Sequence record: OR769031.1
Reading direction: 5' to 3' (one strand)
Length of the DNA stretch: 39,283 bases
Source of the DNA: Escherichia phage Carena
Shown here: one piece after another, positions 1 to 39,236 of the stretch
Layout: the number at the start of each line of letters is the position of its first letter
Position numbering within the stretch: position 1 is the first letter of the stretch
Notes under the pieces: generated by a model
What the model was told of the DNA's origin: nothing
Seen by the model: only the letters and a program-made list of their open reading frames with translations
The model's database searches: none
Translations under genes and position numbers: made by a program

Positions 1-207
1 ATGTTGTCTTTAGATTTTAACAACGAGGTAGTGAAGGCTGCTCCGATTGTAGGTACAGGTGTAGCCGACGGTGCTGCCCGTCTGTTCTTCGGACTGTCCC
101 TTAACGAGTGGTTCTATGTAGCCGCAATTGCCTACACAGTGGCTCAAATTGGTGCCAAGGTAGTCGATGTGATTATCAAATGGAAGAAGGAGGGTAAAGA
201 TGTCTAA
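1..207 (+). CDS. 17.5: Class II holin (T7 gp17.5-like), 68 aa
   Basis: ORF starts at window position 1; AAGGAGG at 39272-39278 gives 5-nt spacing across the wrap; hydrophobic core and basic C-terminus; close match to recalled T7 gp17.5 (MLSLDFNNE...AAPIVGTGVAD...). Confidence 0.9.
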   Translation: MLSLDFNNEVVKAAPIVGTGVADGAARLFFGLSLNEWFYVAAIAYTVAQIGAKVVDVIIKWKKEGKDV

Positions 208-469
208 CGATAAATCTTTGATTCAATTCCTTGAGATGCTGGACACTGAGATGGCTCAACGTATGCTTGCTGACTTGCAGAACGATGAACGACGCACACC
301 TCAACTGTACAACGCAATCGGGAAACTATTAGAGCGCCACAAGTTCCAAGTCTCCAAGTTACAGCCAGACCGTAACATCCTTGGTGGACTGGCAGATGGA
401 CTCGAAGAGTACCAGAACTTGGTAGGCTCCGATGGTCTCACTGAAGATGAGAAGTACACGCTTAACTGA
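200..469 (+). CDS. 18: Terminase small subunit / DNA maturation protein A (gp18-like), 89 aa
   Basis: SD GAAGGAGGG upstream of ATG at 200; same length and position as T7 gp18; overlaps holin stop. Confidence 0.85.
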   Translation: MSNDKSLIQFLEMLDTEMAQRMLADLQNDERRTPQLYNAIGKLLERHKFQVSKLQPDRNILGGLADGLEEYQNLVGSDGLTEDEKYTLN

Positions 470-475
470 TGGTAA

Positions 476-517
476 TACTCAAGGCCACTACATCTAGTGG
501 TCTTTATGGATTATCAA
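476..517 (+). promoter_or_regulatory. RNase III-type processing hairpin (R18.5-like)
   Basis: Motif ACTCAAGG...GG(T)CTTTATGGATTA shared with six other intergenic sites in this window (CAAGGTC...GGCCTTT..TGAT); matches T7 RNase III site architecture. Confidence 0.6.
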
Positions 518-567
518 CACAACTCACGGTGACTCTACGTGAAATCTGAGAAATGGGGAGGGTAGTT

Positions 568-1011
568 ATGCTCAAGAATTTAAAGAGCTACGCCATCGCT
601 GTGGCCTTTGCCTTGGGGATGACCCTTGCGTACAACCACGGCTATGACAAGGCTAACACTAAATGGGAACAGGAGGTGCACAATGAGTACGTTAAGAAAG
701 TTGAGGCGACTGCGGATAAACAGGCTGCTCTCAATGAAGTCTCACGACAATACCAAGAAGACCTTGCGGCGCTGGAAGGCAGCACTGATAGGGTCATTAA
801 TGATTTGCGTAACGATGGTAAGCGGCTGCGTGTCAAACTATCAGCCACCTCACGAGAACTCCAAGCTAACGGTGGATGCCTCGTTGATGGTCGAGCCGAA
901 CTTGACGAAGAGTTTAGTAAGCGTCTTATCGGAGTAACTCAAAGAGGGGATGCGTGGATTAAAGCGCTCCAAAATACAATAACTGAAATGCAATCTAAGA
1001 AGGAGAAATAA
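568..1011 (+). CDS. 18.5: Rz-like inner-membrane spanin (i-spanin), 147 aa
   Basis: SD GGGGAGGG 5 nt before ATG at 568 (the 553 ATG lacks an SD); N-terminal TM helix then long charged coiled-coil; similar to recalled T7 gp18.5. Confidence 0.85.
   Translation: MLKNLKSYAIAVAFALGMTLAYNHGYDKANTKWEQEVHNEYVKKVEATADKQAALNEVSRQYQEDLAALEGSTDRVINDLRNDGKRLRVKLSATSRELQANGGCLVDGRAELDEEFSKRLIGVTQRGDAWIKALQNTITEMQSKKEK
683..937 (+). CDS. 18.7: Rz1-like outer-membrane lipoprotein spanin (o-spanin), embedded in +1 frame of Rz, 84 aa
   Basis: AGGAGG 6 nt upstream of ATG at 683; basic n-region, hydrophobic core, lipobox VSGC, proline-rich mature part; begins MSTLR like T7 gp18.7; entirely inside the Rz gene. 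Confidence 0.8.
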   Translation: MSTLRKLRRLRINRLLSMKSHDNTKKTLRRWKAALIGSLMICVTMVSGCVSNYQPPHENSKLTVDASLMVEPNLTKSLVSVLSE

Positions 1012-1012
1012 T

Positions 1013-1240
1013 ATGGCTACTACAAACTCAAGAACCAGCACACTCTGGACCATCAATGGTCGCTCACCAGATAGCCGTGATGTGTATGACCGCAACAATA
1101 TTGGTCTTCGTGTTGGGCGTATCGACATCCCAGCTTCCGTTATGTTCCAACCTAGTGACATCGACGTGGCTGTATCTAAGACCGACACTATCAAGGCTCT
1201 TGAGAAGCGCATCGCTGACTTAGAGAAATCTGCCAAGTAA
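1013..1240 (+). CDS. Hypothetical protein, 75 aa, between spanin and terminase large subunit
   Basis: AGGAG 7 nt upstream of ATG; starts 2 nt after Rz stop; no TM or signal peptide; C-terminal amphipathic/coiled-coil segment (IKALEKRIADLEKSAK). No counterpart at this junction in T7 as I recall it. Confidence 0.6.
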   Translation: MATTNSRTSTLWTINGRSPDSRDVYDRNNIGLRVGRIDIPASVMFQPSDIDVAVSKTDTIKALEKRIADLEKSAK

Positions 1241-1255
1241 CAATAGGAGGCCACA

Positions 1256-3013
1256 ATGTCTACTCAAGCAAACAAGAATGCGCTCATCGTGGCGCAACTT
1301 AAGGGTGACTTCGTGGCCTTCCTGTTCGTCTTATGGAAGGCTCTGAACTTACCTAAACCAACCAAGTGTCAGATTGATATGGCACGTACACTCGCTAACG
1401 GCGACCACAAGAAGTTTATCCTTCAGGCGTTCCGTGGTATCGGCAAGTCCTTTATCACCTGTGCGTTCGTCGTGTGGGTCTTATGGCGTGACCCTCAACT
1501 TAAGGTGCTCATTGTGTCTGCCTCTAAGGAACGTGCGGACGCTAACTCCATCTTCATCAAGAACATCATCGACCTCTTACCGTTCCTCTCTGAGTTGAAA
1601 CCTCGACCGGGACAGCGAGACTCCGTGATTAGCTTCGATGTGGGATTGGCTAAACCAGACCACTCTCCCTCTGTTAAGTCTGTAGGTATCACTGGTCAGT
1701 TGACTGGTAGCCGTGCTGACATCATCATCGCAGATGACGTTGAGGTTCCTGGTAATAGCTCTACGAGTTCTGCCCGTGAGAAGCTCTGGACGTTGGTAAC
1801 TGAGTTTGCTGCACTACTTAAGCCGCTGCCTACCTCTCGTGTTATCTACCTTGGCACACCTCAAACCGAGATGACGCTCTACAAGGAACTTGAGGATAAC
1901 AAAGGGTACAGCACAGTAATCTGGCCAGCACAGTATCCTCGCAATGATGCTGAGGCTCTCTACTATGGGGACCGCTTGGCTCCGATGCTTAAGGCTGAAT
2001 ACGATGAAGGCTATGAGTTACTTCGTGGTCAACCTACTGACCCTGTTCGATTCGACATGGATGACCTCCGTGAACGTGAACTCGAATACGGTAAAGCTGG
2101 CTACACGCTTCAGTTCATGCTTAACCCAAACCTTAGTGATGCCGAGAAGTACCCGCTACGACTCCGTGACGCTATCGTGTGCGCTGTGGACCCTGAACGT
2201 GCCCCATTGTCTTACCAGTGGTTGCCGAACCGTCAGAACCGCAATGAGGAACTCCCTAACGTTGGTCTGAAGGGTGATGACATCCATAGCTTCCATACGT
2301 GCTCTTCTAGAACCGCTGAGTACCAGTCTAAGATTCTCGTCATTGACCCTAGTGGTCGTGGTAAGGATGAGACCGGGTATGCAGTCCTCTACTCACTGAA
2401 CGGTTACATCTACCTGATGGAAGTAGGAGGGTTCCGTGGTGGCTACGATGATGCTACCCTAGAGAAGCTCGCTAAGAAGGCCAAGCAGTGGAAGGTACAG
2501 ACAGTCGTCCATGAGTCCAACTTCGGTGACGGTATGTTCGGTAAGATTTTCTCTCCGATTCTCCTGAAGCACCATAAGTGTGCCTTAGAGGAAATCCGTG
2601 CTAAGGGCATGAAGGAGATGCGAATCTGCGATACTATCGAGCCATTGATGGGTGCACACAAGCTGGTCATTCGTGATGAGGTTATCCGTGAGGACTATCA
2701 GACTGCTCGTGACCTTGATGGGAAACATGATGTCCGCTACAGTGCGTTCTATCAGATGACCCGTATGACCCGTGAGCGAGGCGCTGTGGCACACGATGAC
2801 CGCATTGATGCTATCGCATTGGGTATCGAGTTCCTTCGTGAAGGGATGCTTGTGGATAGCCGTGTAGGTGAAGAAGAGATGACCCTTGAGTTCCTTGAAC
2901 ATCACATGGAGAAACAGACCATTGGTGGTGATGCTATTCATAGCTACGAGGCTGGTGGCGTGGACATCTACTACGAGGATGATGGAGACTCTAGCTGCTT
3001 CATTGAGTGGTAA
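1256..3013 (+). CDS. 19: Terminase large subunit / DNA maturation protein B (gp19), 585 aa
   Basis: SD AGGAGG; near-identical N-terminus to recalled T7 gp19 ([30 protein letters not shown]); ATPase and nuclease regions conserved. Confidence 0.97.
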
Positions 3014-3100
3014 TAGATAAGTATGCGGGAAAGGTGCATAGGTAAGCACTTAGTACCGCTACGTTACCATTAAGTAACTTACTGATATACATGAAGAAAT

Positions 3101-3123
3101 TAATACGACTCACTATTGGGAAG
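3101..3123 (+). promoter_or_regulatory. Phage RNAP promoter (phiOR-like)
   Basis: TAATACGACTCACTATTGGGAAG; 22/23 identical to T7 class III consensus; same position as T7 phiOR upstream of gene 19.5. Confidence 0.8.
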
Positions 3124-3137
3124 GGCACCCTAAGACA

Positions 3138-3157
3138 ACTTAAAGACACTTAAAGAC
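3138..3157 (+). repeat. Tandem decamer ACTTAAAGAC x2
   Basis: Direct tandem repeat read in the sequence; resembles the short AAAG-containing repeats near T7 genome ends. Confidence 0.5.
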
Positions 3158-3281
3158 TGCATATGCAAAGTGCATACTTAGTGACTAACTCTTAGAGACC
3201 CTTACAGTGAGGGATGATGGTAATAGTAATTACATCCCTAACTATCAGTGTAACCATCAAGTATAACAAGGAGGACGCTCT

Positions 3282-3437
3282 ATGCGCTTACTATCCGTGC
3301 TAAAGACACTGGCAACGCATCGAGTGACTTACAAATTTCTCGTTGTACTTGCTGCTTCCATTGGTCTCGCATCTAGTGCTGAACACATCGGTGAACTGGA
3401 GACTCTGCTTTGTTCTCTACTCACTTGTGTTCCTTAG
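3282..3437 (+). CDS. 19.5: gp19.5-like small protein, 51 aa
   Basis: SD AAGGAGG 7 nt upstream; not in the ORF track (<60 aa); conserved HRVTY.FLVVL motif as in T7 gp19.5; last gene before the genome end. Confidence 0.7.
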   Translation: MRLLSVLKTLATHRVTYKFLVVLAASIGLASSAEHIGELETLLCSLLTCVP

Positions 3438-4120: not shown

Positions 4121-4190
4121 AGCTCTTGAGTGTACCGTATAAGCGAATAACTCAAGGTCGCACTGAAAGCGTGGCCTTTATGATATTCAC
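4121..4190 (+). promoter_or_regulatory. RNase III processing site (R0.3-like)
   Basis: AGCTCTTGAGTG...AACTCAAGGTCGCACTGAAAGCGTGGCCTTTATGATATTCAC; near-identical to recalled T7 R0.3. Confidence 0.7.
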
Positions 4191-4218
4191 TTAACGAACT
4201 AACATGAGGTAACACCAA

Positions 4219-4677
4219 ATGATTTTCACTAAAGAGCCTGCTAACGTCTTCTATGTACTGGTAAGCGCATTCCGTTCCAACCTCGACGATGAGGTGAATA
4301 TGAGTCGCCACCGCCACATGGTAAGCACTTTACGTGCCGCACCGGGTCTTTATGGCTCCGTTGAGTCAACCGATTTGACCGGGTGCTATCGTGAGGCAAT
4401 CGCAAGCGCACCGACTGAGGAAAAAACGGTTCGTGTACGCTGCAAGGACAAGGCGCAGGCACTCAATGTTGCACGCTTAGCTTGCAATGAGTGGGAGCAA
4501 GATTGCGTACTGGTATACAAATCACAGACTCACACGGCTGGTCTGGTGTACGCTAAAGGAATCGACGGTTACAAGGCTGAACGTCTGCCGGGTAGCTTCC
4601 AAGAAGTGCCTAAAGGCGCACCGCTTCAAGGTTGCTTTACGATTGATGAGTTCGGTCGCCGCTGGCAAGTACAGTAA
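4219..4677 (+). CDS. 0.3: Gene 0.3 product, SAM hydrolase (SAMase) type rather than Ocr, 152 aa
   Basis: First early gene; 152 aa, not acidic, unlike the 117-aa acidic Ocr; sequence MIFTKEPA... matches my recollection of T3 gp0.3 (recollection confidence about 0.75). Confidence 0.85.
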   Translation: MIFTKEPANVFYVLVSAFRSNLDDEVNMSRHRHMVSTLRAAPGLYGSVESTDLTGCYREAIASAPTEEKTVRVRCKDKAQALNVARLACNEWEQDCVLVYKSQTHTAGLVYAKGIDGYKAERLPGSFQEVPKGAPLQGCFTIDEFGRRWQVQ

Positions 4678-4680
4678 GTG

Positions 4681-4726
4681 TTAAACTCAAGGTCGCTCCT
4701 AGCGAGTGGCCTTTATGATTATCACT
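4681..4726 (+). promoter_or_regulatory. RNase III processing site (R0.5-like)
   Basis: AAACTCAAGGTCGCTCCTAGCGAGTGGCCTTTATGATTATCAC. Confidence 0.7.
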
Positions 4727-4752
4727 TTGAAACAACGCACGGGATTAATATC

Positions 4753-8822: not shown

Positions 8823-8829
8823 CGGAATC

Positions 8830-8852
8830 TAATACGACTCACTATTGGGAGA
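8830..8852 (+). promoter_or_regulatory. Phage RNAP promoter (phi1.1A-like)
   Basis: TAATACGACTCACTATTGGGAGA. Confidence 0.85.
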
Positions 8853-8911
8853 CCCTTGGGGTTTCCCCTACTTTAAGATAACTTTAAGTTTAACTTTAAG
8901 AGGCAACAACT

Positions 8912-9481
8912 ATGTTTACTTTCATTGCAACCACTACCGCTATCATCTCCACCACACTGGCTATCGTCTTCCTCAAGACTGGTAAGCAAGTCAATGACCA
9001 ACTCAATGCAGCCTATAAGGAACGTAAAGTTCTCAAAGAGAATCTGGCTGAAGGTCATAGTGAACTGGCATCCATGCGCAATTACATTGAGAGATACAAG
9101 CGAGAGACTGAGAGCGACATGAAGTTTGAAAGTGAGCGCACCAAGGCAATCATCACAGACCATGTGAACCGCAACAAGGAACTGAGAGAGCACATTAAGG
9201 AGTTAGAGAAGTTCCGCGATGGCATCCTGTTTAGTGACATCACGTCTATCAAGTTTACTGCTCACATCCCGGATGCTGGATGGAAGCGCACTGAGTTCAA
9301 GCTAGGCATAGGGTCTTGTGGCAAAGAGGTTACATGTTTGCACTGGAAAGAACAGTCGGACCGTTACCTGCTGACACAGACATGCACTGATGGTGAGCGC
9401 AAAGAGTTCACCTATTATAAGAAAGACGTAGCGGGTCGCATTGAGATTGCACGTAAGGTTGCAGACAATACGACTCACTAA
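8912..9481 (+). CDS. Hypothetical membrane-anchored protein in the gene 1.05 slot, 189 aa
   Basis: SD and phi1.1A upstream; N-terminal TM helix (FTFIATTTAIISTTLAIVFL), long charged coiled-coil, Cys-containing C-terminal domain; not present in T7. Confidence 0.8.
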   Translation: MFTFIATTTAIISTTLAIVFLKTGKQVNDQLNAAYKERKVLKENLAEGHSELASMRNYIERYKRETESDMKFESERTKAIITDHVNRNKELREHIKELEKFRDGILFSDITSIKFTAHIPDAGWKRTEFKLGIGSCGKEVTCLHWKEQSDRYLLTQTCTDGERKEFTYYKKDVAGRIEIARKVADNTTH

Positions 9482-9488
9482 TGGGAAA
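9466..9488 (+). promoter_or_regulatory. Phage RNAP promoter (phi1.1B-like)
   Basis: CAATACGACTCACTAATGGGAAA; overlaps the last four codons and stop of the upstream ORF. Confidence 0.8.
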
Positions 9489-9498
9489 CACTGAAAGT

Positions 9499-9538
9499 TA
9501 AACTCAAGGTCATCTACATGGTGGCCTTCATGATTAAC
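9499..9538 (+). promoter_or_regulatory. RNase III processing site (R1.1-like)
   Basis: AAACTCAAGGTCATCTACATGGTGGCCTTCATGATTAAC. Confidence 0.7.
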
Positions 9539-9570
9539 TGTCAACGATACTACAAAGAGGAAATAACATT

Positions 9571-9720: not shown

Positions 9721-9992
9721 TGGGTCGCTTATACAGTGGTAACTTAATGGCATACAAAGACGCTATCGAACGACTCAAAGAAGACCACGATGTGAGTGTG
9801 GTCGTTGAGACTTTCCGCTATGAGAACTATGCGAGGATGCGATGGGTATCCGGTGAGACTCTTCGAGTGGTCTTACGGAATGGCTTAGTGTTAACCTCTA
9901 AGTGTTTCGAACAGGACGATGAAGACGTTCGCTGCAATGCACAGACTGAATGGCTTCGTAAGGTACACAGTGACCTGAAGCACTGGAAGTAA
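9720..9992 (+). CDS. 1.2: gp1.2-like (host dGTPase inhibitor family), 90 aa
   Basis: Starts MGRLYSGNL and ends DLKHWK like T7 gp1.2 (MGRLYSGNL...LKDWK); TAATG overlap with gene 1.1 stop. Confidence 0.85.
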   Translation: MGRLYSGNLMAYKDAIERLKEDHDVSVVVETFRYENYARMRWVSGETLRVVLRNGLVLTSKCFEQDDEDVRCNAQTEWLRKVHSDLKHWK

Positions 9993-10012
9993 TACGACTC
10001 ACTATTGCGAGA
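9990..10012 (+). promoter_or_regulatory. Phage RNAP promoter (phi1.3-like)
   Basis: TAATACGACTCACTATTGCGAGA (C at +2); its first TAA is the gene 1.2 stop codon. Confidence 0.8.
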
Positions 10013-10014
10013 GG

Positions 10015-10055
10015 TAAACTCAAGGTCATCTACACGGTGGCCTTTGTGATTAACT
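10015..10055 (+). promoter_or_regulatory. RNase III processing site (R1.3-like)
   Basis: AAACTCAAGGTCATCTACACGGTGGCCTTTGTGATTAAC. Confidence 0.7.
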
Positions 10056-11225: not shown

Positions 11226-11247
11226 TATACGACTCACTATGGAGGAA
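11225..11247 (+). promoter_or_regulatory. Degenerate phage RNAP promoter (phi1.5-like)
   Basis: CTATACGACTCACTATGGAGGAA; -13..-3 core intact, -17/-16 and -1 deviate; GGAGGA doubles as SD. Confidence 0.45.
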
Positions 11248-11254
11248 CAACCTC

Positions 11255-11335
11255 ATGCTATTTCTAATTGTCGCTGTAATTGTTGCCACATTTGCTTTCG
11301 TTGTCATTGACGACAATTGCTGGCCTGATTGCTAA
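11255..11335 (+). CDS. Small hydrophobic peptide (gp1.5-like), 26 aa
   Basis: SD GGAGGA 8 nt upstream; hydrophobic core plus acidic/Cys tail, pattern like T7 gp1.5; not in track. Confidence 0.45.
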   Translation: MLFLIVAVIVATFAFVVIDDNCWPDC

Positions 11336-11355
11336 TACGACTCACACATGGAGGA
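11333..11355 (+). promoter_or_regulatory. Degenerate phage RNAP promoter (phi1.6-like)
   Basis: TAATACGACTCACACATGGAGGA; -17..-5 perfect, -4..-1 altered (ACAT instead of TATT). Confidence 0.5.
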
Positions 11356-11362
11356 CACACAA

Positions 11363-12088: not shown

Positions 12089-12276
12089 GCAACTTAAACA
12101 AAGGGTCACTTGTAAACGGTGACAAGAAGTTCTTCGCAACGGTCGAAGGCCAAGGCCAATCGTTCGAAGTCCCTGTGTTCGCTGCGTCTCTTGAAGAGGC
12201 CAACGAGTTAGCTGAGTGGCAATATGTCCCGGCTGGCTTCGCAGTGACACGCATCCGTCCAGACCGAAAGGTTTAA
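12085..12276 (+). CDS. 2: Host RNA polymerase inhibitor Gp2, 63 aa
   Basis: ATGA overlap with 1.8 stop; MSNLNKGSL...FEVP...[14 protein letters not shown] matches T7 Gp2. Confidence 0.9.
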
Positions 12277-12296
12277 TAGGACTCACTATTGGGAGA
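12274..12296 (+). promoter_or_regulatory. Phage RNAP promoter (phi2.5-like)
   Basis: TAATAGGACTCACTATTGGGAGA; first TAA is the gene 2 stop codon. Confidence 0.8.
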
Positions 12297-12344
12297 CACA
12301 GCGTTTCCCAATTTTAACTTTCAGAAACTTTAAGGAGAAACATC

Positions 12345-13945: not shown

Positions 13946-14038
13946 ATGATGATTATCCACGAGATGGGTCTATACGATTTGGCTTATCGCTTGGCATTCC
14001 TGCTGGCAATGGTCTACATTCTGACCCGCAAGGATTAA
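13946..14038 (+). CDS. Small hydrophobic peptide, 30 aa
   Basis: ATG 5 nt after gene 3.5 stop; single predicted TM segment; stop codon is the TAA of the following promoter; not in track; no strong SD. Confidence 0.35.
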   Translation: MMIIHEMGLYDLAYRLAFLLAMVYILTRKD

Positions 14039-14058
14039 TAGAACTCACTATGGGAGGA
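14036..14058 (+). promoter_or_regulatory. Phage RNAP promoter (phi3.8-like)
   Basis: TAATAGAACTCACTATGGGAGGA. Confidence 0.65.
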
Positions 14059-14108
14059 CCGAAAGGTTTCTCCCTTTGTTCGCTAAAATTGTATAAGGAG
14101 TAACCACT

Positions 14109-16056
<1,948 letters not shown>

Positions 16057-16058
<2 letters not shown>

Positions 16059-16079
16059 ATACGACTCACTAATGGGACA
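16057..16079 (+). promoter_or_regulatory. Phage RNAP promoter (phi4.3-like)
   Basis: AAATACGACTCACTAATGGGACA. Confidence 0.75.
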
Positions 16080-16122
16080 GACACTCTGTTCCCACTTATC
16101 AATCCACTTAAGGAGAATCACA

Positions 16123-16876: not shown

Positions 16877-16887
16877 TTGTATGAAAT

Positions 16888-16910
16888 CTATTCAACTCAC
16901 TAATGGGAGA
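16888..16910 (+). promoter_or_regulatory. Degenerate phage RNAP promoter (phi4.7-like)
   Basis: CTATTCAACTCACTAATGGGAGA; A instead of G at -11, deviant -17..-12. Confidence 0.5.
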
Positions 16911-16918
16911 ACAACACT

Positions 16919-17335
16919 ATGCGTAATCGTAATGTAATCGAAGCTGAAATCGCTAAACTGGAAGCTGAACTGGCAGACGTTAAAGAGCATGAATGTGCAC
17001 GCGACTCTGCGGTACATATCCTGAAGAACTTAGGATGGACTCGCTCCCGTGGTCAATGGGTGAAACCTAAAGCCACTAGCGGTAGCGTTGGTATGCAGAC
17101 TTTCGATGCAAACAAGATGACCCACATCAAGGCTGGGGACTTCTGTGAGTCCAACATCAACGGAGACATTTGGTATGTCCGTAAGGTCGAAGGGACAGAC
17201 ATTTGGTGCTCCCGTGTGACACGCATTGATGTAATGGGTACAGTCGCTGGGATTCAGTATCACAAGATGAACCACAAGAACCTGCGTGTGGTTGACCCGA
17301 AGAACTTCATGGGCTACCGTAAATCTACATTTTAA
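16919..17335 (+). CDS. Hypothetical protein, 138 aa (gene 4.7 slot)
   Basis: Positional and size analog of T7 gp4.7 (135 aa); GGGAGA of the promoter start region serves as SD. Confidence 0.8.
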   Translation: MRNRNVIEAEIAKLEAELADVKEHECARDSAVHILKNLGWTRSRGQWVKPKATSGSVGMQTFDANKMTHIKAGDFCESNINGDIWYVRKVEGTDIWCSRVTRIDVMGTVAGIQYHKMNHKNLRVVDPKNFMGYRKSTF

Positions 17336-21264: not shown

Positions 21265-21299
21265 GTGTGTAACTCTAGGCATTCTGACCCTCGTGAAAT

Positions 21300-21322
21300 C
21301 AATACGACTCACTATGGGAGAG
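21300..21322 (+). promoter_or_regulatory. Phage RNAP promoter (phi6.5-like)
   Basis: CAATACGACTCACTATGGGAGAG. Confidence 0.7.
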
Positions 21323-21375
21323 GGGTGCCTATATGATACCTACTTTAAGTTCTAACTTTAAGGAGAGCATTTATT

Positions 21376-22301: not shown

Positions 22302-23909
22302 ATGGCAAGCTCACAGAAACGTGAAGGCTTTGCGGAGAATGGTGCCAAGGCTGTGTATGACGCATTGAAGAACGACCGGAACTCCTATGAGACCCGTGCG
22401 GAAAACTGTGCGAAGTACACAATCCCCTCGTTGTTCCCTAAAGACTCCGACAACGCATCAACTGACTACACCACTCCGTGGCAAGCAGTAGGTGCTCGCG
22501 GTCTGAACAACTTGGCCTCTAAGCTCATGCTAGCTCTGTTCCCTATGCAGACTTGGATGAAGCTGACCATCTCTGAGTTCGAAGCGAAACAATTGGTTGC
22601 ACAACCTGCTGAACTGGCGAAGGTCGAAGAGGGTCTCTCAATGGTCGAGCGTATCTTGATGAACTACATCGAGTCAAACTCCTACCGTGTGACACTCTTT
22701 GAGACCCTGAAGCAGTTAATCGTGGCTGGTAACGCATTGCTCTACATCCCGGAACCTGAAGGTACTTACAATCCCATGAAGTTATACCGACTGTCTTCTT
22801 ATGTTGTCCAACGAGACGCATTCGGCACGGTATTACAGATTGTGACCTTGGATAAGACTGCTTATGCAGCGCTACCAGAAGACGTAAGGAACTCTCTGGA
22901 CTCCGGTACGGAACACAAAGGCGATGAAATGATTGACGTGTATACTCACATTTATCTCGATGAGGAATCAGGCGAATACCTGAAGTACGAAGAGATTGAT
23001 GGAGTCGAAGTTGATGGTACAGATGCTTCTTATCCGGTGGACGCTTGTCCTTATATCCCGGTTCGCATGGTACGCATTGATGGGGAATCATACGGTCGTT
23101 CATACTGCGAGGAATACTTGGGTGACTTACGTTCCCTTGAGAACCTTCAGGAAGCTATCGTCAAGATGTCCATGATTAGCGCAAAGGTTATCGGCTTGGT
23201 AAACCCTGCTGGTATCACACAGGTTCGCCGCTTGACCAAAGCGCAGACTGGTGACTTCGTGTCTGGTCGTCCAGAAGACATCTCGTTCCTGCAACTCGAA
23301 AAGGCTGCTGACTTCTCCGTGGCTCGTGCTGTGAGTGAACAGATTGAAGGCCGACTGTCCTATGCCTTTATGCTGAACTCCGCTGTGCAACGTACTGGTG
23401 AGCGTGTGACTGCCGAAGAGATTCGCTATGTTGCATCTGAACTCGAAGATACCCTTGGTGGTGTCTATTCGATTCTCTCACAGGAACTTCAGTTGCCAAT
23501 GGTTCGTGTCCTGCTGAAGCAACTTCAAGCGACCAATCAGATTCCTGAGTTACCGAAAGAGGCCGTTGAGCCTACTATCAGTACCGGGATGGAAGCATTG
23601 GGTCGTGGTCAAGACCTCGATAAGCTGGAACGCTGTATTGCTGCGTGGTCTGCTCTTGCTCCTATGCAGAATGACCCGGACATCAACATTGCGACCATTA
23701 AGTTGCGCATTGCGAACGCTATCGGCATCGACACTTCCGGTATCCTCAAGACACCTGAAGAGAAACAACAGGAAATGGCTGAGTCCGCTCAAGGTACTGC
23801 ACTGGAGAACGCTGCTGCGTCTGCTGGTGCTGGTGCTGGTGCACTGGCTACTGCAAGTCCTGAGAACATGCAAGCTGCTGCTGAACAGGCTGGTATGGTT
23901 CCCAATTAA
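22302..23909 (+). CDS. 8: Portal (head-to-tail connector) protein gp8, 535 aa
   Basis: Size and position as T7 gp8 (536 aa); SD AAGGAGG. Confidence 0.97.
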   Translation: MASSQKREGFAENGAKAVYDALKNDRNSYETRAENCAKYTIPSLFPKDSDNASTDYTTPWQAVGARGLNNLASKLMLALFPMQTWMKLTISEFEAKQLVAQPAELAKVEEGLSMVERILMNYIESNSYRVTLFETLKQLIVAGNALLYIPEPEGTYNPMKLYRLSSYVVQRDAFGTVLQIVTLDKTAYAALPEDVRNSLDSGTEHKGDEMIDVYTHIYLDEESGEYLKYEEIDGVEVDGTDASYPVDACPYIPVRMVRIDGESYGRSYCEEYLGDLRSLENLQEAIVKMSMISAKVIGLVNPAGITQVRRLTKAQTGDFVSGRPEDISFLQLEKAADFSVARAVSEQIEGRLSYAFMLNSAVQRTGERVTAEEIRYVASELEDTLGGVYSILSQELQLPMVRVLLKQLQATNQIPELPKEAVEPTISTGMEALGRGQDLDKLERCIAAWSALAPMQNDPDINIATIKLRIANAIGIDTSGILKTPEEKQQEMAESAQGTALENAAASAGAGAGALATASPENMQAAAEQAGMVPN

Positions 23910-23929
23910 TACGACTCACTAATGGGAGA
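23907..23929 (+). promoter_or_regulatory. Phage RNAP promoter (phi9-like)
   Basis: TAATACGACTCACTAATGGGAGA; first TAA is the gene 8 stop. Confidence 0.85.
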
Positions 23930-23984
23930 GACACTACGTCCTCCCTTGAGTTCAACTTTATGAAATCTAAAGGAGATAACAATT

Positions 23985-24896: not shown

Positions 24897-24899
24897 AAT

Positions 24900-24922
24900 T
24901 AATACGACTCACTATTGGGAGA
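24900..24922 (+). promoter_or_regulatory. Phage RNAP promoter (phi10-like, capsid gene promoter)
   Basis: TAATACGACTCACTATTGGGAGA followed by a GGGAGA...TCTCCC 5' stem-loop and a 105-nt leader to gene 10. Confidence 0.9.
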
Positions 24923-25027
24923 GACAATACGTTCTCCCACTTTGAGTGATACACAATGAGAACCAACTCGTTTCAAGTAGTACCTCACATTTAAATTTTC
25001 ATATAAATCAACAGAAGGAGATTCAAC

Positions 25028-26267: not shown

Positions 26268-26290
26268 CTAATAGACTCACTAATGGGAGG
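26268..26290 (+). promoter_or_regulatory. Degenerate phage RNAP promoter (phi11-like)
   Basis: CTAATAGACTCACTAATGGGAGG; GACTCACTA core intact, upstream part shifted by 1 nt. Confidence 0.5.
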
Positions 26291-26298
26291 AAATCACT

Positions 26299-29323: not shown

Positions 29324-29346
29324 CAATACGACTCACTATTGGGAAG
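29324..29346 (+). promoter_or_regulatory. Phage RNAP promoter (phi13-like)
   Basis: CAATACGACTCACTATTGGGAAG; flanked by CCCCC / GGGGGG runs. Confidence 0.8.
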
Positions 29347-29373
29347 GGGGGTTTATACTTAAAGGAGAACTCT

Positions 29374-35700: not shown

Positions 35701-37164
35701 GATAAGAAGTCTGAAGGCAAAGGCACAATGAAAGGTGAAGTGGAAGCACTCAAGGATACCGTTAAGATTCTCACAGGCCGTGCTCGACGCAATCAGGATA
35801 CTATGGGTGACACTATGGTTCGCGCTCTGTCCGATATGTCCTTCTTCACGAAGAACGCATACATGGGCTTGCAGAACCTAACTGAAATCTCTGGTATGTT
35901 GGCTAAGGGTAACGTTCGTGCGATGCTGCATGGTATTCCGGCACTGCGTGACTTAGCATTCCGCAACAAGCCAGTCTCCGGTAGTGAACTCAAAGAACTC
36001 CACTCCATGGTGTTTGGTAAAGAGTTCGACCAGTTAATCCGACCGACTCGTCAAGACATCATTCAGCGACTCCGTGAGTCCACTGATACACCTGATGTTG
36101 CAGCTAAGGTTGTTGGTACGGTTAAGCACACCACTCAAGAGTTGGCTGCTCGCTCTCCGTTCACTAAGTTCCTCAATGGTACTTCCAACTACATTCTGGA
36201 CATGGCCCGTCAAGGTGTCATGGGAGATGTGGTAACTCATGCCATTACTGGTAAGGGTGCCAACAAGTGGATTAAAGGCGACATGCTGAAATCTGCGAGT
36301 ATCTCTAAGGAACAGTGGGAAGGCATTCAGAACCTCATCCGTGAGAACGTCACTCAAGGTGCTGACGGCAAGTACACCTTCAAGGACAAGCGTAAGTTGG
36401 CTAATGACCCGCGAGCTATGGACCTGTGGCGACTGGCTGATAAGGTAGCTGATGAAACCATGCTGAGACCACACAAGGTGTCCTTACAGGATTCCCATGC
36501 GTTTGGCGCTGCTGCTAAGTTGGTCCTTCAGTTCAAGTCTTTCGTAATCAAGTCGATGAACTCTAAGTTTATCCGCTCCGGTAACGAAGCCTTTAAGAAC
36601 CATAGGGCTATGGATATGGCGCTAACCTACGCAATCTCTGGTGGAATTGCTGGTTCCTACTACGTGGCACAGGCCCACTTGAAGGCTGCTGGTCTACCTA
36701 AAGAGCAACAGAAGGACTACTTGAAGAAAGCTCTCGACCCTAAGATGATTGCCTACGCTGCGGCCTCCAGAAGTTCACACTTAGGGTCTCCGTTGAGTAT
36801 CGCTAACTTCGTTATGGGTGCTGCGGGTTATGACCAAGGTCTTATGGTTCGCTCTACGATTCTACCGAAAGGTGATGACAAGCGTGAGCGCAATAAGGCA
36901 GCGACTTCTCGTGACATGGGTGATTCAATTATGGGCGCTATTGGTGAACAGATTCCCGCTCTTGGCTTCGCTGGTGCTACTCTTGCTGCTGGTCGAAATG
37001 CTTATGGTGTCCTTACGGCTCCCAATAAAGTGACCGAGCGTGAGATGATGACTGGTCTGATGAATGCTCATCGTGAGATGGTTCCGAACGACCCAATCAC
37101 TCAACAGATGCTCATTAAGTTCTATGAGGCTAACGGTGTTCACCTTAAGTCTGACAAGAAGTAA
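32713..37164 (+). CDS. 16: Internal virion protein D with N-terminal lytic transglycosylase domain (gp16), 1483 aa, GTG start
   Basis: GTG start 6 nt after AGGAGG; N-terminus MDKY...GVSYGLLRKVGWVESRFNP.A.SKTGPRGVMQFTKATG (SLT motif, catalytic Glu) as in T7 gp16; about 165 aa longer than T7 gp16 because of an internal coiled-coil insertion. Confidence 0.95.
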   Translation: MDKYNPNEPHEYDALFQQAADTHGVSYGLLRKVGWVESRFNPKAQSKTGPRGVMQFTKATGQAYGLLSDEDFNDPAKSIDAGARYLADLVKKYNGDELKAALAYNQGEGHNGKPQLEAYDSGNFAGIGDEGRNYIRSLLDVAKSPKSGDIESFGGITPKGKGIPFDAAMSGIGKKGKVTTELPESHSMSFQGKEQAAPNQPFGKDYWEAKGTTLDEANERSTFFGFGNAAEAELSNSTLGVAFRAGKRDNGFDVVTDVLQPTRFNSHIWSPEELEKIRNEVKNPAYMNVVLGGSSENLDELIKLANENYELDAKAADAGLGAKLSAGIIGAGVDPLTYVPIAGTAAKGFKLVNKALIVGAQAGALSVASEGLRTSVAGGDAHYAEAALAGMLFAGGLTAIADGVAAGLRKSGAEQIENPFAAAQMRFEARETARNTGGHDASRMPPSEDRVFSQHNGVEYSPLETEPGAVVLRDGSIISDTNLANPMTAKEFAEVDPERAAWGLPMRGLSEIGLRTLRSEHAEIRGLAKDLVRSPTGMESGSHGKFGATASDIKERLHSTNQRTYNDLYAAMKEAMADPEWSVGMFKRSAQGARQEIYRRAAIAIERPELQANLTKAERKVMDIMKEHFDLKREMMENPAMFGNKATSIFPNSRHKGTYVPHVYSREAKQLYAQALGGTDGLQEAIAASWMTSYRSRPEVKARVDEMLLEQLRASQPSGKTAGTTPNKHSSVDTASYQMKLDDAATQASDKVAELKDVLTNAEKRVADRERKLQNSKDRLASHEAKLKELEEKLAAKPNSKTIPVKIESRKKMIETQKSHVRVNTDRLDYMKGQVTKVQDRITKATSEAEEAASAVKGAQAAPAKPSERRKFDTDEKVEPNVDEEAVLSQMAEKYAMDKAYGIAKTDEFNSSSVIDDNIEGLVGIENNSFLEARNLFDSDMPITLPNGQQFSVNDLRDFDMKHVMPAYDRRIDGDIAIMGGTGKTTAELKDSIMALDKKSEGKGTMKGEVEALKDTVKILTGRARRNQDTMGDTMVRALSDMSFFTKNAYMGLQNLTEISGMLAKGNVRAMLHGIPALRDLAFRNKPVSGSELKELHSMVFGKEFDQLIRPTRQDIIQRLRESTDTPDVAAKVVGTVKHTTQELAARSPFTKFLNGTSNYILDMARQGVMGDVVTHAITGKGANKWIKGDMLKSASISKEQWEGIQNLIRENVTQGADGKYTFKDKRKLANDPRAMDLWRLADKVADETMLRPHKVSLQDSHAFGAAAKLVLQFKSFVIKSMNSKFIRSGNEAFKNHRAMDMALTYAISGGIAGSYYVAQAHLKAAGLPKEQQKDYLKKALDPKMIAYAAASRSSHLGSPLSIANFVMGAAGYDQGLMVRSTILPKGDDKRERNKAATSRDMGDSIMGAIGEQIPALGFAGATLAAGRNAYGVLTAPNKVTEREMMTGLMNAHREMVPNDPITQQMLIKFYEANGVHLKSDKK

Positions 37165-37165
37165 T

Positions 37166-37188
37166 CAATACGACTCACTAATGGGAAG
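37166..37188 (+). promoter_or_regulatory. Phage RNAP promoter (phi17-like)
   Basis: CAATACGACTCACTAATGGGAAG followed by a GGGAAG...CTTCCC stem-loop. Confidence 0.85.
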
Positions 37189-37235
37189 GCTAACACAGCT
37201 TCCCTCTATCCAACACATTCGAAAGGAGGCTACAG

Positions 37236-39236
37236 ATGGCTAACAAGATTCGTACTGTGATGACTTACCCGCTGAATGGTGCCGTGAACTTCACGATTAC
37301 CTTTGATTATCTGGCTCGTAAGTTCGTCCAAGTGACACTTATTGGTAAAGACCGTAAAGAACTGGTTCTCAATCAGGACTACCGTTTTACCAGTAAGACT
37401 CAAATTACAACTACCCGTGCGTGGACTGCCGCTGATGGCTACCAGATGATTGAGATTCGTCGATTCACTTCGGCTACCGACCGTCTGGTTGATTTTGCTG
37501 ATGGCTCAATCCTCCGTGCATATGACCTGAACATCTCGCAGATTCAAACCCTGCACGTTGCCGAAGAAGCACGAGACCTCACTGCGGATACCATTGGTGT
37601 CAACAATGATGGTCACTTAGATGCTCGTGGTCGTAAGATTGTAAACTTGGCGTATGCCACAAATGACTATGATGCTGTTCCTTTAAAGCAGGTTAAAGAG
37701 CGTGAATCCTCTGCATGGAATGCTGTAACAAAGGCTAACGAACATGCCGACCGCTCCAATAAGGAAGCAAACCGTTCTCGTGATGAGGCCAACCGTGCTC
37801 AACGTGAAGCTGACCGCTCAACTCAACAGGCAGGTGTCTCTACGCAACAAGCAGTTGAGTCCAAGAAGCAAGCTGATCGTTCCAACTCTGAGGCTAACCG
37901 AGCTAAAGGATATGCTGATAGTATGACCGCAAGTGTCGCTGAGGCTAAGAAGCAAGCTGACCGTTCCAACTCTGAGGCCAATCGTGCCCGTGATGAGGCC
38001 AATCGTGCTGCCGGAGAAGTGACTAAAGCTGCTGCTGAGGTTGCCAAGGCTGCTGCACACGTTGAGACCGCTAAGGGACATGCAGACCGTGCGAACACTG
38101 AGGCTAATCGCTCCAAAGGTGAGGCTGACCGTGCTAAGTCTGAGGCCGACAAGTTAGGCAGCATGAATGCACTTGCAGGGGCTATTGAAAGTGTATCAGG
38201 CAGTGATGTACGCTTTAAGGGTAAAGTAAGTGGGCGCAGTCTGACTCTACATAATGATGCTAAAGGCGCTGGGACTCAACCAGTAGACCAAGTGTGGAAC
38301 CAGTGGCGTGGTCAGGACTCTAAGGAGACTGTGTGGGAACAGTGGATTCAAGCTGGGACAAAACGAATGGACTACTATGTGTTCACTAACACCGACCCGG
38401 CAACGTGGCCTGAAGGTCGTTCCAATAGCAAAGGACACCATAACTTCTATGGTGACGTTCTGTTTGCTGGTGGTAACGTCGAGACGCACGGGAACCTTAA
38501 GGTAAACGCAGTTGAGTCTAGACATAACGTGTTCATCTCCGACCAAGCCGCAAGTTTCAAGAGTAACACACATGGTGGTAGCTGGAACCAGTGGACCGGT
38601 AGCTTGAATCCAGACCTACAGCATGATATTGCTGGACAAGGGGACGTTGCATATCTCCTTGAGAGGGCTACAATTTGGGGCAAAGAACACCTGTATGCCA
38701 AGTGCTTATATAACAACGGCACAGGCGCTAACTTCTTTATCAGGCAATATCTGCGAGGCACCTATTTCGATCTACGCTCCGATGGTGTCCTTTCCTGCTC
38801 TTCTGGTTGGAACATCCCACCCGATGGGAACCTGTACATCAAGAAGTACAACTCGTACATTGATGCTTGGGTGAATAAGCGTCTTAGCGAACATGCTTAC
38901 AACAAAAGCGAGACCAACAACTTAGTCAATGGACGCCTAACACAAGGTGCTGCTGATGGTCTATACATCCGTAAGAATGCTGGTTGGTCTGAGGTTTGGA
39001 AAGGCCCTGCTGGTGGTGGTGTTTCAGTTGGTCTCTCACAGGATGTTCGTTGGAGAACCATCTGGATTCAAACTCAAGGCAAATGGAACCCTGTGGAGAT
39101 TGGGGACGATGGGGCTTACTACATTTCGTCGATGGGCGGTTGGTTGACCTTTACAATCTCCAACAACGGGCGTACATTCCGTAACGATGGTGATAGGTCT
39201 TCTGTTCCTACACGCATCCTTGTGCGTAACAACTAA
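37236..39236 (+). CDS. 17: Tail fiber protein (gp17), 666 aa
   Basis: N-terminal ~150 aa conserved with T7 gp17 (ADGY..IE.RR.TS.TDRLVDF.DGSILRAYDLN..QIQT.HVAEEARDLT.DTIGVNNDGHLDARGR.IVNLA); repetitive coiled-coil shaft; divergent distal domain; C-terminus SVP...V.N. like T7. Confidence 0.95.
   Translation: MANKIRTVMTYPLNGAVNFTITFDYLARKFVQVTLIGKDRKELVLNQDYRFTSKTQITTTRAWTAADGYQMIEIRRFTSATDRLVDFADGSILRAYDLNISQIQTLHVAEEARDLTADTIGVNNDGHLDARGRKIVNLAYATNDYDAVPLKQVKERESSAWNAVTKANEHADRSNKEANRSRDEANRAQREADRSTQQAGVSTQQAVESKKQADRSNSEANRAKGYADSMTASVAEAKKQADRSNSEANRARDEANRAAGEVTKAAAEVAKAAAHVETAKGHADRANTEANRSKGEADRAKSEADKLGSMNALAGAIESVSGSDVRFKGKVSGRSLTLHNDAKGAGTQPVDQVWNQWRGQDSKETVWEQWIQAGTKRMDYYVFTNTDPATWPEGRSNSKGHHNFYGDVLFAGGNVETHGNLKVNAVESRHNVFISDQAASFKSNTHGGSWNQWTGSLNPDLQHDIAGQGDVAYLLERATIWGKEHLYAKCLYNNGTGANFFIRQYLRGTYFDLRSDGVLSCSSGWNIPPDGNLYIKKYNSYIDAWVNKRLSEHAYNKSETNNLVNGRLTQGAADGLYIRKNAGWSEVWKGPAGGGVSVGLSQDVRWRTIWIQTQGKWNPVEIGDDGAYYISSMGGWLTFTISNNGRTFRNDGDRSSVPTRILVRNN
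37740..38160 (+). repeat. Coding direct repeats within the tail-fiber shaft (period about 84 bp)
   Basis: AAGAAGCAAGCTGA(T/C)CGTTCCAACTCTGAGGC at 37864 and 37948; CGTGATGAGGCCAA(C/T)CGTGC at 37779 and 37989; encodes repeated ADRSNSEANRA units. Confidence 0.75.

Follow-up and report, generated by a model that had tools for sequence, protein, structure and literature searches.

The 75-codon open reading frame (ORF) between the spanin genes and the terminase large subunit gene of Escherichia phage Carena is, with high probability, what remains, collapsed but in frame, of a late accessory gene of 185 codons that is carried as a cassette by Berlinvirus phages. The window, by which we mean the entire stretch of DNA analyzed, comprises 39,283 nucleotides (OR769031.1), and the ORF (75 codons plus stop) occupies positions 1013-1240 on the plus strand. 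Relative to the 185-codon Berlinvirus gene represented by phrog_20446, it is an in-frame internal-deletion allele. Its product is deposited as WPJ67490.1 and annotated as “hypothetical protein car1b_004” in Escherichia phage Carena (OR769031, Berlinvirus). Carena was recovered from water of the Ebrie lagoon, with E. coli C as the isolation host and a 48 h enrichment (PMC10927641). The genome announcement (PMC10927641) is silent on a truncation of car1b_004, and no paper discussing the gene in the slot between genes 18.5 and 19 was found in a literature search.

The ATG of the ORF is located at 1013 and its TAA stop at 1238-1240. A Shine-Dalgarno sequence, AAGGAG (1000-1005, +), is present within the 3′ end of gene 18.5, 7 nt 5′ of the ATG. 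The gene 18.5 stop codon is at 1009-1011 and the ORF begins 2 nt later, so the description given in the sequence-only reading, a 75-codon ORF with a good Shine-Dalgarno sequence of its own starting 2 nt past the Rz stop, was accurate. Three further genes of the window start in the same initiation context (AAGGAGA...ATGGCT; repeat family D8). The neighborhood is a T7-type late cassette consisting of the holin gene 17.5 (1-207), the small terminase gene 18 (200-469), the i-spanin (Rz) gene 18.5 (553-1011, +) immediately upstream of the ORF, and the terminase large subunit gene 19 (1256-3013, +) immediately downstream. Gene 19 is preceded by its own Shine-Dalgarno sequence, AGGAGG (1245-1250, +), which is carried along as part of the 3′ portion of the accessory cassette. 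The o-spanin (Rz1) gene 18.7 (683-937, +) is embedded in the +1 frame of gene 18.5, encodes a lipobox (...VSGC) and has annotated homologues in BA14 and CarlSpitteler. An antisense ORF at 850-1254 was judged to be spurious, as stops interrupt its BA14 counterpart, and an Rfam scan of positions 1-3300 gave no match. The nearest phage promoter 5′ of the ORF is at ∼37163-37204, ahead of gene 17. Because no promoter-like copy exists between 37204 and 3098, the ORF would be read from the gene 17 promoter or from ones further upstream.

The product carries no cysteine and hence no lipobox, and has no signal peptide. Its maximum 19-residue Kyte-Doolittle value is 0.78, so there is no transmembrane segment. 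Like Rz1, car1b_004 is a small ORF of the lysis cassette, but it lacks the signal peptide, cysteine and lipobox of an o-spanin. Rz1 itself is still found within Rz, and the ORF is therefore not a displaced Rz1, in agreement with the sequence-only reading. The amphipathic, coiled-coil-like C-terminus noted earlier was also recovered: the last 25 residues fit a heptad pattern with I/L at the a and d positions (best-register a/d residues A-K-I-L-I-L-A). This helix matches helix 167-181 in the AlphaFold model of a full-length relative and is no longer than about two to three heptads. The other proteins of the window showed no similarity to the 75-aa product, and holin families in Pfam, PHROGs and NCBIfam gave no match to it.

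The 11 closest relatives (PZJ0206, CarlSpitteler, 285P, PhiV-1, nasanit, FE44, BSP161, S523, P483, BA14 and ETEP21B) all carry a 558-bp, 185-codon gene in the 18.5-19 slot, annotated as “unknown product” or “hypothetical protein”, and every copy is intact. Using either positions 1-3100 (megablast) or the 75-aa product (tblastn) as query, relatives were matched in two pieces that together span 555 bp in the relative versus 225 bp in Carena. The DNA alignment of Carena and BA14 contains a single clean gap of 330 bp, corresponding to codons 43-152 (110 of 185 codons), such that codons 1-42 are joined in frame to codons 153-185. The edges of the gap are formed by a 5-bp direct repeat, GCTTC, present in relatives as two copies 330 bp apart; these stand in the contexts CCAGCTTCGG (upstream) and AG(C/T)GCTTCCG (downstream) in BA14, 285P, PZJ0206, FE44, BSP161, S523 and nasanit. 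In Carena a lone GCTTC remains at the deletion junction (1133-1137, +). The 5′ remnant (1013-1132, +) holds codons 1-40 of the full-length gene, which encode strands β1 and β2 and the conserved GRxPDSRD...GRIDIP motif as judged from the BA14 alignment, family alignments and the structural model. The 3′ remnant (1138-1237, +) holds codons 153-185, which encode the last part of a strand together with both C-terminal helices, one of these being amphipathic and coiled-coil-like.

Despite the deletion, the start codon, Shine-Dalgarno sequence and stop codon of the ORF were all kept, as was the Shine-Dalgarno sequence of gene 19. The flanking region is otherwise colinear with that of the relatives, and the 75 retained codons are 84-94% identical to their copies. 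Carena falls within a group of long-form phages to which it is 93-96% identical at the DNA level. Because of this placement, and because the N-terminal domain is present in every more distant family member, the alignments identify the 185-codon long form as the probable ancestral state. Neither the deleted 330 bp nor the surroundings of the ORF contain a phage promoter-like site at ≤6 mismatches. Translational coupling was considered as a cause of in-frame deletions and is unsupported, since RNA structure does not occlude the initiation region of gene 19 (z = +0.94).

That the ORF is not a product of chance is borne out by its match to phrog_20446 (E = 1.4e-37, 130.5 bits) and by relatives in 57 phage records. 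This 185-position profile is covered in two stretches only, by residues 1-44 against positions 1-44 and by the C-terminus, and coverage of the full-length profile, including the N-terminal β-sandwich, is not achieved by the Carena product. An AlphaFold2 model of the 185-aa form (mean pLDDT 76, and ∼85 over residues 1-120) predicts an N-terminal β-sandwich with strands at 4-13, 32-40, 52-59, 64-67, 89-95 and 104-114 and a helix at 70-76, followed by an acidic DPEPEGG linker, three short strands (129-155) and C-terminal helices at 157-164 and 167-181. The deletion took out five of the seven sandwich strands and the only helix of the sandwich, as well as the acidic linker and most of the small module that follows it. 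The Carena product also lacks the motifs GY.KVEY, GS..MT and V.KE..DP, which are invariant in the family, and the predicted pI shifts from 4.9 for the acidic 185-aa form to 9.3 for the basic 75-aa product. Phrog_20446 members such as BA14 “unknown product” ACF15774.1 (likewise 285P LXB_046, FE44 FIVT_0044, CarlSpitteler bas68_0005 and PhiV-1 QLF85797) thus share the slot, start context and stop with the Carena ORF, but they are 185 aa long and acidic and have the N-domain core.

Private substitutions of Carena in the retained codons are confined to R9S and G162V, both non-synonymous and both at conserved residues, with no synonymous changes. In the same columns, the other eleven phages have 5 non-synonymous versus 16 synonymous private changes, a difference that is not significant (one-sided p ∼0.08). 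These substitutions are consistent with relaxed constraint on the Carena copy. Because the core of the N-terminal β-sandwich and the acidic linker were removed, the ancestral function has most probably been lost from this copy. The roles proposed in the sequence-only reading (lysis regulator, packaging accessory or host-interaction factor) are unlikely for the Carena copy, from which 110 of 185 codons and most of the conserved N-domain are missing. Its view of the ORF as an extra gene holds in that the ORF has its own translation signals and has no counterpart in T7 or T3, where 18.5/18.7 run directly into 19. It does not hold in that the full gene is 2.5 times as long, and the ORF an allele of it with an internal deletion.

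We consider it unlikely that the 75-aa stub acts as a functional mini-protein, whose N-terminal 42 residues still dock on a partner and whose helix still oligomerizes, giving it a partial ancestral role or making it a dominant competitor. These 42 residues are the most conserved stretch of the family and contain many family-invariant residues (R, D, S, R, D, R, D, S), and the deletion is in frame with start, stop and both Shine-Dalgarno sequences kept. A second, independent 40-aa allele (described below) is likewise in frame and keeps its N-terminal 28 residues. However, the prior for an in-frame outcome is 1 in 3 per event, which makes two cases weak evidence. The strands that remain after loss of five of seven N-domain strands and the only helix cannot form the sandwich, and the invariant motifs listed above went with them. 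Carena has also altered the conserved basic residue 9 and G162, and the net charge of the protein has been reversed.

Two further readings are far less probable. An artifact of the assembly or of the phage population is a highly improbable source of the short ORF; on this reading, a stock with the full-length gene, or a mixture, would have been represented with 330 bp collapsed in assembly. In its favor, the exact 75-aa product occurs as a single sequence among ∼15 billion proteins, and a 32-mer spanning the junction of the deletion is not in IMG/VR. Against it, the contigs from two assemblers agreed at 11,338x coverage (PMC10927641), a repeat of 5 bp falls well short of the length at which assemblies collapse, and the remaining region is colinear with relatives. 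Least probable of all is a self-standing new small late gene for a lysis regulator, packaging accessory or host-interaction factor. The position of the ORF between spanin and terminase genes, its strong translation signals and its amphipathic C-terminus would suit such a gene, but the ORF is a fragment of a 185-codon gene at a position already occupied in relatives. Moreover, searches of Pfam, PHROGs, NCBIfam and the PDB related it to none of the holin, antiholin, spanin, terminase or portal-associated families, and T7, T3 and P694 lyse and package normally without the gene.

The reading of car1b_004 as a remnant accounts for these data by ordinary gene decay in a dispensable slot; the ORF is not a new regulator. 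In the Carena lineage, 330 bp would have been lost between the two GCTTC repeats, joining codons 1-42 to 153-185. Since the endpoints lie in a short direct repeat, the signature of such events, the deletion probably arose by replication slippage or by microhomology-mediated illegitimate recombination. Events of this kind between short repeats are a classic source of T7 deletions, and spontaneous deletions between short direct repeats of T7 were reportedly described by Studier and co-workers and by Pierce, Kong and Masker. The Carena deletion resembles these in having a perfect direct repeat (5 bp), in leaving one copy and in affecting a non-essential gene. It differs in coming from a natural isolate obtained with a 48 h enrichment on E. 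coli C. Because the start codon, stop codon and both Shine-Dalgarno sequences survived, the stub is probably still translated late, from class III message, as an 8.3-kDa basic peptide that would consist of two N-terminal β-strands and a C-terminal amphipathic helix. Most probably, then, car1b_004 is a decaying, dispensable remnant. Its annotation should describe an allele of the Berlinvirus 185-aa gene with an internal deletion rather than a distinct small protein. The locus opens no new class of mechanism. Carena is a natural near-knockout of a conserved, uncharacterized late accessory gene, and its comparison with CarlSpitteler, PhiV-1 and 285P, in which the gene is intact, offers a route to the family function via adsorption, host range, burst and virion composition.

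The full-length family is rare and narrow in distribution. By tblastn it is present in 57 of 50,697 phage records, all Berlinvirus-like, whose hosts are Escherichia, Yersinia, Salmonella, Erwinia and Enterobacter. Protein collections yielded 18 clusters at 90% identity (5.8 billion proteins) and 23 representatives at 50% identity (1.84 billion proteins), and IMG/VR contributed nothing beyond known isolates. Wherever the context could be read, including in divergent metagenomic T7-like phages, the order was Rz, family gene, large terminase on the same strand. The refutation that the sequence-only reading itself proposed applies here, as the gene is annotated at exactly this position in 57 Berlinvirus-group records and, as car1b_004, in Carena. 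At the 18.5-19 junction the slot is empty in T7, as stated in that reading, and in T3, and it is filled in the 11 Berlinvirus relatives. KP32 and P694 also have an empty slot, and sequence comparison suggests the same for JSS1, JSS2 and vB_CECAV_058. The full-length gene is dispensable, and copies are under purifying selection (mean pairwise dN/dS 0.13).

The P694 junction (L005:1000-1020), set against window positions 995-1260, illustrates how the slot may be filled. In empty-slot Berlinviruses such as P694, the Rz stop overlaps the gene 19 start (TAATG), and gene 19 uses the AAGGAG within Rz. Where the slot is filled, this AAGGAG is used by the accessory gene instead, and another Shine-Dalgarno sequence, AGGAGG, comes with the cassette. 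Because empty-slot phages exist and the gene 19 Shine-Dalgarno sequence arrives with the gene, the accessory gene behaves as an insertable cassette, running cleanly from one Shine-Dalgarno sequence to the next, that brings its own downstream signal for gene 19.

The second, independent collapsed allele, P0031, encodes 40 aa and lies at L019:2034-2156 on a 6.6-kb metagenomic T7-like contig (Logan contig SRR16235701_17658). It descends from a 251-codon P0011-type gene (L020:601-1356) that lost two segments in frame, each between short repeats (CTCTG and CTGCTGAA). Start and stop codons are kept, as is the gene 19 Shine-Dalgarno sequence, and 28 N-terminal residues remain. P0031 thus resembles the Carena allele in family, slot, in-frame deletion between short repeats and preserved signals, and differs from it in the 251-aa parent, in having two deletions instead of one and in the 28 N-terminal residues that it retains.

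When the stub, the 185-aa form and seven paralogues were scanned against Pfam, NCBIfam and PHROGs, two PHROGs of unknown function were the only families recovered. A weak match to phrog_1857, “head-tail connector” (E 0.006-0.0095), covers only the coiled-coil tail and was taken as compositional. Sequence profile searches of the PDB matched designed coiled coils alone, and Foldseek searches of BFVD returned family members, one uncharacterized Klebsiella phage protein and nothing else. A relationship between the N-domain and the tail-attachment domain of gp17 (PF03906) was considered on the basis of a marginal BLAST value (E 0.034) and rejected, as hhalign gave a probability of 0.26% and no PF03906 match was obtained.

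Family members share a conserved N-domain (∼115 aa) and a DPEPE linker, followed by C-terminal modules that vary between members; most proteins end in a ...LEKRIxALEKPA helix. The phrog_27102 proteins of Yersinia phages Yepe2, Berlin, Yep-phi and vB_YpP_T3 (201-256 aa) occupy the same 18.5-19 slot as the Carena ORF. They have a homologous N-terminal ∼115 aa (∼60% identity) and the DPEPE linker in common with phrog_20446, and many have the ...LEKRIxALEKPA helix. Phrog_27102 proteins differ from phrog_20446 in their central and C-terminal modules, one of which is common to rV5-like tail fibers and, as tandem repeats, to large RTX/cadherin-like bacterial proteins. In the 256-aa Yersinia-phage paralogues, this central module aligns with an internal domain of rV5-like tail fibers at 29% over 126 residues (pairwise E 3e-9; database-wide E ∼3e-3; ∼100 records). 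The BA14/Carena subtype is without the fiber-like module. P0011 contains Ala/Ser/Glu-rich repeats resembling the gp17 shaft repeats, for which the BLAST match is not significant (E 0.27). The central module of the 256-aa paralogues is also found in 5-6 tandem copies in bacterial proteins P0030, P0033, P0035 and P0036 (540-1288 aa). These proteins have RTX, cadherin-like and Tox-PLDMTX-like Pfam matches, and the module itself has no Pfam model.

A literature search found no virion proteome for a Berlinvirus carrying the gene. A virion proteome has been published for vB_ShiP-A7, but this phage is absent from the tblastn matches to the family. Due to late expression, the acidic product, the conserved N-terminus paired with a variable C-terminus, and dispensability, we suggest with low confidence that the full-length family might be an accessory virion-surface (fiber- or adhesin-like) protein and not a lysis or packaging factor; its link to lysis or packaging is one of position alone. 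The module that longer paralogues have in common with rV5-like tail fibers hints weakly in the same virion-surface direction. A more specific proposal is doubtful. It holds that the family is an unrecognized virion-surface protein of T7-like phages, whose sandwich would dock on the particle and whose swappable fiber-type modules and coiled coil would serve as a secondary adhesin or decoration. The gene would be shed repeatedly by in-frame microhomology deletions, as in the 75-aa (Carena) and 40-aa (L019) stubs, when it is unneeded, for example on rough laboratory hosts like E. coli C.

Several other features of the window were recorded. Between genes 18 and 18.5, a stable hairpin at 467-520 (MFE −24.7 kcal/mol, z = −3.2) lies where T3 has its annotated RNase III site, R18.5. 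Hairpin repeats of a similar ACTCAAGG...GTGGCCTT type are present at 4140-4192, 4675-4727, 9493-9539 and 10009-10055 (families D6 and D14), and none of the hairpin repeats in the window was recognized by Rfam. The window also contains ∼16 promoter-like 23-mers for a phage RNA polymerase, with the consensus TAATACGACTCACTA(A/T)TGGGAGA, which is very close to that of T7 except for the initiation-proximal TA(A/T)TGGG. Copies are located at 3098-3139, 8827-8868, 9463-9504, 9987-10028, 11227-11249, 11335-11357, 12271-12312, 14033-14074, 16054-16095, 16885-16926, 21289-21323, 23904-23945, 24897-24938, 26270-26292, 29326-29348 and 37163-37204. Within gene 17 (tail fiber), four 68-nt units at 37732-38135, with a spacing of 105-126 nt, encode shaft repeats of the ADRSNSEANRA type. 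Note that the deposited Carena genome is circularly permuted with respect to the T7 convention, starting at gene 17.5 and ending after gene 17. The window must therefore contain the true genome ends and terminal repeat, for which the stretch from gene 19 to the early region (about 3.1-4.7 kb) is the probable location.
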